A stretch of DNA of 61,828 nucleotides, counting the filler, from Chthonomonadaceae bacterium (GTDB lineage: Bacteria; Armatimonadota; Chthonomonadetes; Chthonomonadales; Chthonomonadaceae): NCBI GenBank assembly GCA_035650735.1. It is 4 parts of 4 records of this genome, joined end to end, with 100 filler letters (N's around TTAATTAATTAA, not from the genome) between each part and the next. Parts side by side here need not be neighbours in the genome. Positions count along the whole stretch, not along the records: positions 54,877 to 61,828 come from DASRGZ010000136.1; 3 more parts are not named here. One strand, written 5' to 3'. Positions 28,415-60,144 of this stretch are shown piece by piece. Both the position numbers and the translations under genes were made by a program. Numbering within the stretch: position 1 is the first letter of the stretch; each line of letters begins with the position of its first letter. Under the pieces are notes generated by a model that worked only from the letters and a program-made list of their open reading frames with translations, was not told where the DNA came from and did not search any database.

Positions 28415-28514
28415 NNNNNNNNNNNNNNNNNNNNNNNNNNNNNNNNNNNNNNNNNNNNTTAATTAATTAANNNNNNNNNNNNNNNNNNNNNNNNNNNNNN
28501 NNNNNNNNNNNNNN
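28415..28514. other. Artificial contig linker
   Basis: N-run + TTAATTAATTAA + N-run, 100 nt, identical at three places. Confidence 0.98.
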
Positions 28515-45017: not shown

Positions 45018-45117
45018 NNNNNNNNNNNNNNNNNNNNNNNNNNNNNNNNNNNNNNNNNNNNTTAATTAATTAANNNNNNNNNNNNNNNNNNNNNNNNNNN
45101 NNNNNNNNNNNNNNNNN
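45018..45117. other. Artificial contig linker
   Basis: N-run + TTAATTAATTAA + N-run. Confidence 0.98.
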
Positions 45118-54627: not shown

Positions 54628-54664
54628 CTCTTTTTCCGGCAGGCTAAACCCTGCCGCTGTGGGG

Positions 54665-54776
54665 CGCTGCCAGGGTCGGCGCTGCGCTCGCTCGACTGCC
54701 AGGGACGCCGCTCAACGGTTCGCGGCTCTGCCTGGCGATCTCCGCCTAGCCAGGCCCGCTGACTGCCAGGGTCGGG
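54665..54776 (-). repeat. Nested hairpin unit at contig end
   Basis: Minus strand: GCTAGGCGGAG ATCGCCAGGCAGAG..GTCCCTGGCAGT..CCGACCCTGGCAG. Confidence 0.75.
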
Positions 54777-54876
54777 NNNNNNNNNNNNNNNNNNNNNNNN
54801 NNNNNNNNNNNNNNNNNNNNTTAATTAATTAANNNNNNNNNNNNNNNNNNNNNNNNNNNNNNNNNNNNNNNNNNNN
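54777..54876. other. Artificial contig linker
   Basis: N-run + TTAATTAATTAA + N-run. Confidence 0.98.
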
Positions 54877-55805: not shown

Positions 55806-56781
55806 CTAAGCATGTTCAAAGGTAAGCCGCTTTCCGTAGGCGGCCTCCGTAAATGCCTCAATGGCGGCGCGCAGGCTCATGGCCGGGAACTCCATTTTGT
55901 CGGGGCTGGTCTCGCCCAGCCCCAATCGGCTTGCCTCCCAGAGATGGCGCACGGCCTGCGGCCCGAAGCCCAGCAGCTTAGCGCCGACCACGTCGGCAGC
56001 CAGCGGGTCGGTGCTGGCGATGACCAGCCCCGTCTCGACGACATGGCCGCCGAGCGGCCCGGCGCCGATCATGGCCGGATGGCCGACGGTGATCGCCAGG
56101 CGGATGGGGAAGCGCTTTGCCATCGCTGCGATGAAGGAGTGCATATCCGCGAAAAACCAGTTCTCGTGCTTCTTCGTGGAGCGGGGATGGCCGTAGTAGT
56201 CCGCCGCCGGGAAGGACATGGCGATGTTCTTGAGCGCCAGGGTAACGGTGGCTGTCTCGTGCAGCTTCAACTGGCTGAGGGAGATCAGCGTTTCATACTC
56301 CAGCACGCGCGGGTTGACCATGATCGACCTTTGCGGGCCTTCCACGTCTTTATTCGGGGCATACTTTTTTAGCTGGGGGGGAGGATCGCCCCCCCCCAGT
56401 TTGGCCTTCCACGTCTTTATTCGGGGCATACTCCAGCGCGACTTCCGTAAACGGCGGGCGGTTGTGATCGAAGAAGGTCGCTCCTTCCTGCTCGACGACC
56501 TCCATCAAGCCGGCAATGCGAAACACATCTTCCGTCTCCGCGGCGCCAGCGCCGCCGCTGACGACGAGCTCGCGCGGGCCATAGGCTTTCAGACGGCGCA
56601 GCACCGCGCGGAGCGTGTCTGGCTGCGTCACGCCGGTCTTGTCTTTTTCCGAGGCCCAGGTATCGTTGGGTTTGACCGCGACGCGCTTGCCGCGTACCAG
56701 CCCCTCCAGGGGAATAGGGTCCAGCGCGGCGTTGATGGCCTTCTCAATGGCATCGTTCTGGGTAATGACAACGGCAGGCAT
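55806..56781 (-). pseudogene. DUF362 Fe-S protein frameshifted by a 67-bp insertion
   Basis: 'VAVKPN', 'LKLH....VTLALKN', 'ASTDPLAAD'; removing the insertion gives a continuous 'LEYAPNKDVEGPQRSIMV'. Confidence 0.88.
56336..56432. repeat. 30-bp perfect direct repeat flanking a 37-bp hairpin insert
   Basis: GGCCTTCCACGTCTTTATTCGGGGCATACT at 56336-56365 and 56403-56432. Confidence 0.92.
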
Positions 56782-56961
56782 CTGCTTCTCCTCGCTTCTT
56801 ACATCGAGATTTGGGAGGCTCGCAGGCGGCGCGGGTGGACACTAAACTACTGCTGCTCCTCGCTTCCTGAATCGAGATACCGAGCGCCGATCTGCGGGTC
56901 GGGCCGGGAACAGGACGGCGCATAGAACCGTCCTGTTCCTCAAGAATGGGCTTCCATCACC

Positions 56962-57070: not shown

Positions 57071-58045
57071 ATGCTGCTGGCGCTGCTGGGGGATGTGATG
57101 CTGGGCCGGGGCGTGGGGGATGAGATCGTACGGCGGCCCCCGCAGAGCTTCTGGGGCGACACGCTGCCGCTGCTGCGTGAAGCCGACCTGGTGCTGGCCA
57201 ATCTGGAGTGCGCCGTGACCACCTATCCCCATCCCTGGTCGCGCTCGCCAAAGGTCTTCCATTTTCGCGCGCCGCCCGGAGCTATAGAGGTCCTGCGTGC
57301 TGCCAACATCCGCCTGGTTTCCCTGGCGAACAACCATACGCTCGATTTTGAAGAGCAGGGCCTGCTCGACACGCTGGCCTATCTGGACAGCGCCGGCATC
57401 GCCCATGCCGGAGCCGGGCGGAATCGGGAAGAGGCGCGTCGTCCGGCTATCGTGGAGGCTGGCGGCCTACGCATCGGCCTGATCGCCTGCACCGATAACG
57501 AGCCGGGTTGGGAGGCGGGGCCGGATCGTCCCGGCATCAACTACCTTGCCATTCGCCGCGACCCCGTAACCATGCGGCTTCTGACCGAGACGATTGCGCA
57601 GGCCCGTGCGCAGGGCGCCCAATTTGTGATCCTCTCGCTGCATTGGGGGCCAAACATGCGCCTGCGTCCGCCCGTACACTTTCAGGAGTTTGCCCACGAT
57701 GCGTTGGATTTTGGTGCCGATCTGATCTACGGGCATTCGGCGCATATCTTCCAGGGCGTCGAGATCTACGCGGGCAAGCCCATCCTCTACGATACCGGTG
57801 ATTTCCTGGACGACTATGCCGTAGACCCAACGCTGCGCAACGACCAATCGCTGATCTTCTTTGCCGAGGTGGATAAAGGCGGCGTTCGTGCGCTGCGCAT
57901 GGTTCCCGTACGCCTGCGCTACGCGGAGGTCAACCGGGCCGCAGGGCCGGACCTGGCGGAGATCTGCGACCGGATGATCGCGCTCTCGGCAGAGCTCGGC
58001 ACGCGCGTACAACGGCAGGATTCCACGCTATTAGCCGGGCCATGA
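57071..58045 (+). CDS. CapA family (poly-gamma-glutamate synthesis) metallophosphatase-fold protein
   Basis: 'GDVMLGR', 'NLEC', 'LANNH', 'HWG', 'GHSAH', 'YDTGDF'. Confidence 0.92.
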   Translation: MLLALLGDVMLGRGVGDEIVRRPPQSFWGDTLPLLREADLVLANLECAVTTYPHPWSRSPKVFHFRAPPGAIEVLRAANIRLVSLANNHTLDFEEQGLLDTLAYLDSAGIAHAGAGRNREEARRPAIVEAGGLRIGLIACTDNEPGWEAGPDRPGINYLAIRRDPVTMRLLTETIAQARAQGAQFVILSLHWGPNMRLRPPVHFQEFAHDALDFGADLIYGHSAHIFQGVEIYAGKPILYDTGDFLDDYAVDPTLRNDQSLIFFAEVDKGGVRALRMVPVRLRYAEVNRAAGPDLAEICDRMIALSAELGTRVQRQDSTLLAGP

Positions 58046-58338
58046 ATGACCCGTCTGTAGGGCGGCTACGCCGCCAACCGTCCTCGCGGACGGAACAACC
58101 GGCCTATCGGCAGGGGGATTGCCTTCGTAGAGCGGAAAGAGCCGTCCGCAACGGAGCGTCCGCTAGTCGCAAGGCAGAGGCGCGAGTATCGCCAGGCGGA
58201 GATCGCCAGGCAGAGCCGCGAACCGTTGAGCGGCGTCCCTGGCAGTCGAGCGTGCCCAGTCCCGACCCTAGCAGTGGTAGCGCCGTCCCTTGCAGTCGCC
58301 TGGCCGTAGGCCCCTCAGACGGGTCATTCATGGCCCGG
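58035..58338. repeat. Composite repeat with perfect 23-bp terminal inverted repeats enclosing a three-level nested unit
   Basis: CCGGGCCATGAATGACCCGTCTG (58035-58057) / CAGACGGGTCATTCATGGCCCGG (58316-58338). Confidence 0.85.
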
Positions 58339-60144
58339 ATACGTCCGGGTGGGTAAGGGGAGAGATTTATGCGGAATGCCGCGCCCCTCTTCGATGCACA
58401 GGATGCGGTCGGGGGCGATGTGCCGCAGGGTCTCCTGATGGCCATCGGGCCAGCGGATGGTGAGGCTATCCAGCGTGGCGGTCTGGCCTAAGCCGAAGTG
58501 GATTCGCGGATCGCTGGAGGAAAGATAGGAGGAGGCGGGGGAAACCTGACCGACCCACTGATCCTTGCCGGCGCGCGCCACGACCTGCGCGCCGTAGGCG
58601 AAGCGATTGGGACTGCTGCCGCGCAGATCGAGCGTGATCCAGTGGTTGGGCGTCTGGGAGACGTTGTGGAATAGAAGGGGCTGGCCCTCATAATCCACCG
58701 CCAGGAAATCCATGCGGCCATCGTTGTCGAAGTCGCCGGTGGCCAGGCCGCGTCCCAGGATAGGCGTCGCCACCTCCCCGCCCATCTGGGGCACCAGGTC
58801 GGTGAACTGGCGTCCGCGCTCGTTGTGGAACAGCATCATGGGCTGCCGGAAGGTGGAGAGCGGATCGATGTCGTGGACGTTATCGTAGACGTGGCCGTTG
58901 ACGAAGATAAGATCGGGCCAGCCGTCGTTGTCCAGATCGATCCACTTGTCGCCGAAGCCCAGCGGCTTGTAGGTCGGCCCGGAAAGGCCCGTCTCGTCGC
59001 TCGTCTGCTCGAAGAACCCCCTGCCCACCGCCCGATACAGCGTGTAGGACTCATCGGAGAAGCCGGAAACCGCCAGGTCGAGCCGTCCGTCTCGATCATA
59101 ATCGGCCCAGTCCGCGCCCATTGCCGCCATGGGATGGGCCAGCGCGCCGTAGGCGACGTTGCTGCGCAGCGCGACGTTGCGGAAGCGCAGGCCGCCCAGG
59201 TTGAGCATCAAATCCGCCGGCGTGCCGTCGTTGCCGATGTAGAAGTCCATTCGCCCGTCGCCGTTCACGTCGGCAAAGGCCACGACCAGCGCCTTGCCGT
59301 GCGTGGCCTTCATGCCGGAGGCGTCGGTCACGTCCTTGAACTTCCCGTTGCCCAGGTTCTGCCAGAGTTCGCCGAATTCGGGCCGGTAGCTGCTGGGCGG
59401 GCAGCCACTGCGCACGCCCGATCTCATCTCGCAATACTGCGGCTCGTGCGGCCCAAAGATGACGTAGTTCAGGAGCACCAGGTCGAGCCTGCCGTTGCCC
59501 TCTAAGTCCATAAATCCGGCGCTGCTGCCCCAGTGCCCGCGATTGTGCGGGTCCAGGCCGGCGGCGGCAGTCACATCCTGGAAGCCTTTGCCTCCCGCGT
59601 TCTTTAGGAGCGCCAGCCGTCGGAAGCCGGTCAGCACCAGATCCAGATAGCCATCGCCATCATAATCCCCGACGGCACAACCCTTCCAATCTCCCTGCAC
59701 GGCGGCGAGGCCCATCGCCTCCGACACCTCTTCGAACTGGCCGTTGCCCTTGTTGTGATAGAGCAGGACGTGCGGCGCGGTCACCAGCAAAATATCCTGC
59801 CAGCCATCGTTATCGTAGTCCAGGAAGGCGCACCCGCAGCCGAAGGCTTCCAGGTTGCGCAGCGGGCGCGGCTGTTGGGGCCAGCGATAGTGCAGGCCCG
59901 CCTTCTCCGCGACGTTCTCAAAGCGGATGCCCTGCACGGCCTGTGCGGGACGCGCGTAAGGGTCTGCGCTGGCCGCTTCGGCGGCTTTGACGACGGGCAC
60001 GGTAACGGAAGGCGAGCGGTGGCAGCCCGCCAGGCCGCCCGCCAGCCCTATCCAAAGCGCAGCCAATCCGAGCGGCGCGGGGAGCCGGGATGCTCGCTTC
60101 AGGATGCGTAGGAGGAAGCAGATACGGTGGGATGGAGAGGACAT
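58324..60144 (-). CDS. CRTAC1-family (FG-GAP + ASPIC/UnbV) lipoprotein
   Basis: Lipobox LAGC; DYDNDG repeats; 'SYLSSSDPRIHFGLG..IRWPDG'. Confidence 0.92.
   Translation of the reverse strand: MSSPSHRICFLLRILKRASRLPAPLGLAALWIGLAGGLAGCHRSPSVTVPVVKAAEAASADPYARPAQAVQGIRFENVAEKAGLHYRWPQQPRPLRNLEAFGCGCAFLDYDNDGWQDILLVTAPHVLLYHNKGNGQFEEVSEAMGLAAVQGDWKGCAVGDYDGDGYLDLVLTGFRRLALLKNAGGKGFQDVTAAAGLDPHNRGHWGSSAGFMDLEGNGRLDLVLLNYVIFGPHEPQYCEMRSGVRSGCPPSSYRPEFGELWQNLGNGKFKDVTDASGMKATHGKALVVAFADVNGDGRMDFYIGNDGTPADLMLNLGGLRFRNVALRSNVAYGALAHPMAAMGADWADYDRDGRLDLAVSGFSDESYTLYRAVGRGFFEQTSDETGLSGPTYKPLGFGDKWIDLDNDGWPDLIFVNGHVYDNVHDIDPLSTFRQPMMLFHNERGRQFTDLVPQMGGEVATPILGRGLATGDFDNDGRMDFLAVDYEGQPLLFHNVSQTPNHWITLDLRGSSPNRFAYGAQVVARAGKDQWVGQVSPASSYLSSSDPRIHFGLGQTATLDSLTIRWPDGHQETLRHIAPDRILCIEEGRGIPHKSLPLPTRTYPGHE

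Follow-up and report, generated by a model that had tools for sequence, protein, structure and literature searches.

How did a gene of a soil bacterium of the Chthonomonadaceae (Armatimonadota) come to carry 30 bp of its own coding sequence twice, on either side of 37 nt that homologues of the gene lack? The locus lies in a window (the whole stretch of DNA analysed here, 61,828 nucleotides) in which N runs around a TTAATTAATTAA linker (28415-28514, 45018-45117 and 54777-54876) join four separate contigs, so that gene order across the joins is meaningless. The site (G000:C136:1460-1556, G000 being this genome) begins 1.46 kb inside the fourth contig. The host gene, on the minus strand, belongs to the DUF362 family (PF04015) and is split over two frames by the insert. 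The features of the site are as follows.

56336..56365, plus strand: duplicated target, copy 1, 30 bp of DUF362 coding sequence.
56366..56402, plus strand: foreign, spacer-sized insert of 37 nt, single copy in the genome and absent from homologues.
56403..56432, plus strand: duplicated target, copy 2, 100% identical to copy 1 and not extendable.
56365..56378, plus strand: stretch of the insert common, end to end, to array spacer 9 (G000:C93:3124-3137), from the same invader.
56371..56401, plus strand: GC hairpin inside the insert (-25.6 kcal/mol), from invader DNA and with no part in the mechanism.
56403..56781, minus strand: broken DUF362 gene, 5' part (PF04015 positions 1-83, E 2.4e-9).
55806..56365, minus strand: broken DUF362 gene, 3' part, still open (PF04015 positions 88-199, E 2.9e-20).
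56782..56878, plus strand: probably an earlier scar of this type, now decayed (two 29-nt repeat copies, 86% identical, in a unit of 68).

An earlier note on this DNA had described an exact 30-bp duplication around a 37-mer that shifts the frame of the gene, and the description is accurate. The two copies are identical throughout, cannot be extended on either side and correspond to a single copy in the orthologue; copy 1 is 29 bp long when the T at 56365 is assigned to the insert. Removal of the extra 67 bp yields a single 302-aa ORF that aligns without gaps to the orthologue in a related genome (G019; 250 of 302 residues identical), and the 3' part is 87% identical to that orthologue. Among 80 homologous loci, 79 of them scorable, the N-terminal half lies in frame directly upstream in 76. 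An empty site with a single target copy therefore exists, both in the orthologue alignment and in the 76 uninterrupted homologues, and the insert is the derived state. The reading frame of the 5' part enters the insert and meets a stop at 56350; the 3' half is still open, which argues that the insertion is recent. The genome has distant paralogues of the gene elsewhere, and no relatives of the DUF362 half were found in plasmids. Runs of G9 and C7, together with the 30-bp repeats, may make the knock-out reversible. Directly upstream of the start codon, the pair at 56782..56878 is probably an older scar, and its unit length of 68 is a mode of the main scar class described below.

The array of this genome points to the source of the insert. 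The first 13 nt of the insert are the last 13 nt of spacer 9 (14 nt with the adjacent T at 56365). This is the only end-to-end case when the 84 inserts described below are compared with the 79 array spacers, no such case arose in three sets of random fragments from the genome, and the chance expectation is about 2e-5 per insert, or 1.7e-3 over 84 inserts. Since the overlap runs end to end, insert and spacer 9 come from one invader. On the other strand their joined sequence reads as a hairpin, then a purine-rich ribosome-binding site with an ATG, which would be the start of a foreign gene. Read from spacer 9, the 5' flank of the insert is CCT if the unit is split 29+38 and CTT if it is split 30+37. 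A second insert (C193:12614) has 18 nt in common with spacer 24, which belongs to a group of five overlapping spacers from variant forms of one foreign gene; the array also holds two pairs of exact duplicate spacers. Spacer overlaps place CCN on the 3' side of several spacers. No exact match was found for the insert or its parts in viral contigs or genome contigs, and viral contigs gave none for portions of spacer 9 or spacer 24 either. A comparison of the array with named phages returned two weak matches (E 0.1), both to one and the same mycobacteriophage, which we took as chance.

The insert is indeed a GC hairpin with an A-run, as the earlier note saw (folding z -3.7), and is the second strongest hairpin of the 84. 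A mechanistic role for it was considered and rejected, the median being -8.9 for inserts and -9.3 for array spacers. Spacer 9 carries seven T at the place of the insert's run; the T-run is thus templated and the hairpin incidental.

The earlier note described this one site, and here it needs correcting: the insertion is one of about 100 in the genome. We scanned the 6.52-Mb genome, array excluded, for exact direct repeats. Unit lengths outside the array concentrate at 61, 64-70 and 72-75, with almost none between 80 and 200; the peaks stand at 61, 66-68 and 72-75, with very few pairs at other lengths. From 91 candidate pairs we kept 84, on 72 contigs and each with a repeat sequence of its own; the seven dropped were C23:66, C65:114, C84:4311 and C10:5082 (tandem or dispersed repeats), two type I-E mini-array units on C109 and one of two units on C224. 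By geometry the 84 scars divide into those with repeats of 28-29 bp and unit 61 (4 scars), of 29-33 bp and unit 64-70 (52 scars) and of 35-40 bp (17 scars), besides 11 that fit none of these. The 52 form the main class, with a unit length mode of 67-68 and mostly 30-bp duplications, and fit the type I-B module of this genome. Allowing two mismatches added 78 pairs. A uniqueness filter retained 44, of which about 30 resemble older, decayed scars with the same unit lengths. The inserts are mutually unrelated, except for one pair derived from a host repeat. About 5 of 12 'empty paralogue' hits were not counted, as they are probably matches of a scar to itself through a longer mismatched repeat. 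Four 'array-like' control loci proved to be N runs, and the other control hits were, by eye, low-complexity repeats or GC-rich palindromic doublets, one of them (from G001, L045:906) being uncertain.

The same exact scan of 2.27 Mb from relatives gave 1 isolated event against 25 expected at this genome's rate (P 2e-10), in a sample made of parts of 13 genomes and 18 short loci (0.08-0.40 Mb per genome) from kin that are not independent. At a locus of one relative (L014 3160-3267, G029) two perfect 37-bp repeats flank 34 nt, which is probably a scar of the same kind, and no further scars were found in another 0.38 Mb of that genome. Within the present genome, only 7 of the 84 empty sites, that of DUF362 among them, scored as coding, versus 68% of random sites (hexamer model trained on this genome). 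This scarcity is likely due to purifying selection, with target preference possibly adding to it; target GC is 55% compared with 63% overall. Several scars sit within copies of GC-rich dispersed repeats, other copies of which are empty. High-copy repeats of this GC-rich dispersed kind also occur in the window, at contig ends or between genes (54640-54776 and 58030-58345). One locus (L027 8548-8710, that is, G000:C224:43547-43709) shows three identical copies of a 29-30-bp repeat of no known family here, with two unrelated spacers between them, and seems to be a scar that took a second spacer. Two-repeat units of this kind are easily missed, or miscalled as sequencing frameshifts.

A lack of cas1/cas2 would, by the earlier note, have spoken against its reading, and both genes are present: one cas1 and one cas2 were detected in the genome, which is 97.6% complete in 224 contigs, with cas1b above its cut-off. 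Contig C93 carries cas1, cas2 and cas4, type I-B cas3, cas5 and cas7, type III-A genes and an 80-repeat array of type I-B kind (L023 2502-7721), truncated at its far end by IS21. The array has 29 invariant repeat bases and units mostly of 65-67 (mode 65), and 72 of its 79 spacers measure 36-38 nt, a range that includes the 37-38 nt of the DUF362 insert. The comparison of the 30/37 geometry with the array thus holds in part: the unit length matches and the spacer range fits, but the array itself duplicates 29 bp rather than 30.

The leader may account for that one base. In three relatives that share this Cas1, 30 repeat bases are invariant (125/125, 8/8 and 56/57), and in this genome the full 30-mer is present at the leader, its first base being retained in only 25 of the 80 repeats. 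A leader motif common to all four genomes is found at distances of 101, 111 and 111 bp from the junction in these relatives; here it lies 100 bp from the junction, which is 101 bp from the 29-bp junction. The leader (L023 7722-7902) is 1 nt shorter than in the closest relative (G012) and its G-rich end is missing: leaders end in GGG, GGC and GGG in relatives versus TGT here. We infer that on-target integration is positioned from the leader and that the loss of one base shifted its placement.

Other CRISPR remnants are scattered through the genome. Two orphan mini-arrays resemble type I-E (L024 6231-6381 and L025 9899-10050), the I-E genes, including cas2 and cse1, not being found in this genome; one of their spacers matches the host (C91:1275), adjoining AAG. 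Solitary repeats away from cas genes comprise 7 I-B copies and at least 5 copies of a 37-bp repeat family (G000:C89:7761-7892, C166, C19, C152, C121, C162, C3, C33, C76, C155 and C112), and on C89 one I-B repeat and one 37-bp repeat stand about 100 bp apart. The Cas1b (L023 8250-9428) has an insertion of about 60-70 residues, acidic and little conserved, which G008, G012, G025 and G031 have as well. No relatives of cas1 were found in viral contigs.

We consider it very probable that the DUF362 insert is an off-target spacer integration by Cas1-Cas2. The explanation that survives best beside it, improbable though we judge it, keeps the chemistry and changes the enzyme: a second type I-B Cas1-Cas2 with 30-bp duplications, lost or unassembled, or a Cas1-like integrase outside CRISPR. 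The scars, mode 67-68 and mostly 30 bp, do differ from the array, with its 29 bp and mode of 65, which speaks against a single module; there are two further geometry classes, and the I-E mini-arrays and solitary 37-bp repeats are relics of lost systems in a genome 97.6% complete in 224 contigs. On the other hand, the DUF362 insert overlaps a spacer of this genome's own array, a single cas1 was found, and the leader, 1 nt shorter than that of the closest relative, can account for 29 versus 30.

The choice of targets also bears on the integrase. The 45 main-class targets of 30-33 bp have a near-palindromic motif in common, with an information content of 9.07 versus 4.4-4.8 in 12 matched control sets: G at -3/-2, A12, C13, G17-G18, T19 and C two and three bases past the end. 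Identity of the targets to I-B repeats is maximal at shift 0 (z 6.3 for 25 exact 30-mers, z 7.2-8.0 for the 45 sites); against the genome's own repeat z is 8.0, and relatives' I-B repeats score similarly. The main class shows no such match at shift 0 to repeats of 36-37 bp (z -1.0 to 0). With an I-E repeat it reaches z 4.1, at shift -1, which means that the motif is not peculiar to I-B. Targets of the 35-40-bp class match none of the repeats tried in register (z at most 2.0). The DUF362 site ranks in the top 2.7% of random sites under a leave-one-out target profile; its direct identity to the array repeat is weak, 8/29 at best. The G-rich outer flank of the targets fits the leader ends of relatives, not the leader end of this genome.

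Some inserts come from the host itself. With 0-1 mismatch, 7 of 84 inserts match the host chromosome, versus 0 of 79 array spacers (Fisher P 0.014), and two further inserts loosely match a host repeat. Immediately 5' of the seven sources stands CCG in 4, the same flank shifted by one base in 2 and no CC flank in 1. Four of the seven derive from C15, a 43.5-kb chromosomal contig and a hot spot of spacer uptake, although its share of the genome is 0.7% (P 7e-8 if the contig is named in advance). We asked whether C15 is a mobile element and rejected this, given its genome-average GC and an ORF that we take, from its sequence, to be DNA polymerase III alpha-like.

These regularities bear on a second alternative, the capture of a stray fragment during repair of a staggered break or by a template switch in replication. 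Events of either type can leave a duplication around filler DNA, and some of the fillers here are indeed host-derived. Neither process would fix both duplication and insert lengths in three narrow classes, select repeat-like targets in register or favour CCG-flanked sources, and we regard this origin as very improbable. A third candidate is what remains of an integrative element, a MITE or an insertion sequence that had an att core or made a long target duplication; in its favour, the insert is an inverted repeat and some IS families produce long, variable duplications. Here, however, lengths are tightly fixed and the inserts are unrelated save for the host-repeat pair. The 37-mer, which the earlier note wished to see checked as a possible dispersed element, is single copy and was not found in viral or genome collections, two metagenome matches being the same locus, and no transposase or integrase gene was evident among the ORFs beside the site (7 of 55 ORFs scanned). 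The att-site relic that the note had offered as an alternative can hardly be maintained.

The locus recurs in other assemblies. In three metagenome runs listed under three studies (X2, X3 and X4, X2 being a possible source of this DNA), contigs cross the site with 0 differences at a depth of 11-15, and the same allele is found at this locus in a further pair of metagenome contigs (L048 and L049), making five other assemblies with the insert; a fourth run (X7) has too little depth and leaves a gap at the site. None of the joints listed for the run contigs, which drop rare variants, skips the insert, though a rare empty allele may have been missed. The assemblies were made separately and agree, which makes an assembly error unlikely even if they have samples in common. 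The note's two last alternatives can be given next to no credence: against a terminator RNA inserted by target-primed reverse transcription, which the hairpin and the A-run at one end recall, stand the run templated in spacer 9, the rarity of such runs (1 of 84 inserts, that of DUF362, ends in one) and the failure to find a PF00078 reverse transcriptase in the genome, while an assembly error, conceivable in a metagenome assembly, is countered by both junctions being present in the independent assemblies.

Off-target integration by Cas1-Cas2, the note's own proposal, is thus upheld by the matching cas genes, the overlap with the array and the resemblance of the site to other targets. The type I-B adaptation module (Cas1b, Cas2 and Cas4) would capture a 37-38-nt prespacer from an invader that the array also remembers, and the prespacer ends would be joined, at a spacing of 30 bp, one to each strand of a chromosomal site. 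Filling of the gaps would duplicate the 30 bp, giving repeat-spacer-repeat in the DUF362 gene with its frame shifted. The geometry and polarity of the insertions are read directly from the DNA; the identity of the enzyme is presumed, and the steps are modelled on established Cas1-Cas2 chemistry. With no leader to guide it, the integrase would pick its site by weak intrinsic preferences, for G-rich bases just outside the ends and for an AC...GT core (12-13 and 18-19) such as the I-B repeat contains. The identical misfire would have been fixed many times in the lineage, its scars surviving mostly between genes, and host-derived spacers would persist in scars, presumably as scar repeats are not processed into guides and so yield no crRNA. 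The DUF362 unit works like a neo-CRISPR unit, and those features of such a unit that can be tested are present in it. As a functional array it does not qualify: its 'repeat' is coding sequence that does not resemble the array repeat, and its flanks are gene sequence. The 'neo-array' of the earlier note should be understood as a matter of repeat-spacer-repeat geometry only.

Why are misfires so frequent in this genome? HU/IHF was not found in it with three profiles that detect these proteins in 9 bacterial controls, and PF00216 was found in 1 of 25 genomes of the order, the negatives being 23 of 24 relatives and this genome. A lineage without HU/IHF may organise its chromosome by other proteins. 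According to PMC13769266, HU suppresses off-target integration by Thermotoga profunda Cas1-Cas2 in vitro, and PMC13748974 ascribes the same effect to histones in Pyrococcus. Absence of HU/IHF as a sufficient cause was rejected, since relatives also without HU/IHF show almost no scars; so was the acidic insertion of Cas1, which four relatives share with no scar in the 0.10-0.40 Mb sampled from each. The altered leader, 1 nt short, is a candidate cause for the main scar class. The apparent lack of HU/IHF, combined with a leader 1 nt short whose array duplicates 29 rather than 30 bp, may explain the frequent misfires. The 28-29-bp and 35-40-bp classes would need other integrases and point to past I-E and 37-bp systems in a permissive host; I-E mini-arrays and solitary 37-bp repeats remain in the genome as relics of lost systems.

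A broader account can be offered tentatively, with rather more doubt than belief. In a chthonomonad lineage lacking both HU and IHF, a leader deprived of one base and of its G-rich junction would have made the array a poor target, and the leader motif about 101 or 111 bp upstream would set the 29-bp on-target duplication. The integrase, left unguided, would write 30-bp duplications across the chromosome. Cas1-Cas2 would then be a constant source of mutations throughout the genome and would record DNA of invader and host alike, free of selection, and at least one site (C224:43547) would have taken a second spacer and started to become an array whose repeat is new.

Off-target integration is known mainly from over-expression and test-tube work; here about 100 events, which differ in age, have become fixed in a single wild genome. 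Together these misplaced insertions record the target choice of the enzyme in nature, and they give an in vivo target logo for a leaderless type I-B integrase. They also display spacer uptake before the purge of self-targeting spacers (7/84 self-derived versus 0/79 in the array), and the contrast of 29 with 30 separates the leader-set from the intrinsic duplication length in one enzyme. The scars include direct cases of CRISPR adaptation disabling host genes, and provide a starting point for new arrays. Our literature search, outside which most subscription journals lay, found no paper on dozens of natural scars per genome or on loss of HU in Armatimonadota.

The closest known system is the off-target integration that yields 'neo-CRISPR' loci in Escherichia coli type I-E (Nivala, Shipman and Church 2018, as cited in 10.1101/148544, PMC6698737 and PMC9456107). 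There a repeat-length duplication is likewise reported to surround a spacer-length insert at a non-array site. According to 10.1101/148544, the E. coli case needs artificial up-regulation, and the evidence from two other species was circumstantial; the events described here are instead natural and fixed, at about 100 sites per genome, mainly with type I-B geometry and in a genome in which HU/IHF was not found. In type I-B of Haloarcula hispanica, the mid-repeat motifs AACCC (11-15) and GTGGG (18-22) direct the duplication, whose size can slip to 29-33 bp (PMC4872114), and the strongest positions of our scars, A12/C13 and G18/T19, fall within these motifs. In that system the motifs were mapped by mutating the array, whereas ours emerge from natural, leaderless off-target sites. 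The off-target sites of Pyrococcus furiosus Cas1-Cas2 in vitro share features of the repeat, as the scars do (PMC6698737). These, and those of Thermotoga profunda without HU (PMC13769266), are test-tube plasmid products, in contrast to the heritable chromosomal scars of several ages found here in a lineage where HU/IHF was not found. Casposons also use a Cas1-family enzyme that duplicates its target; the cargo here, by contrast, is spacer-sized and has neither element ends nor genes, and the only cas1 found encodes the CRISPR-linked Cas1b. What is new in the present case is the link to an invader and the contrast between a leader-set and an intrinsic duplication length.
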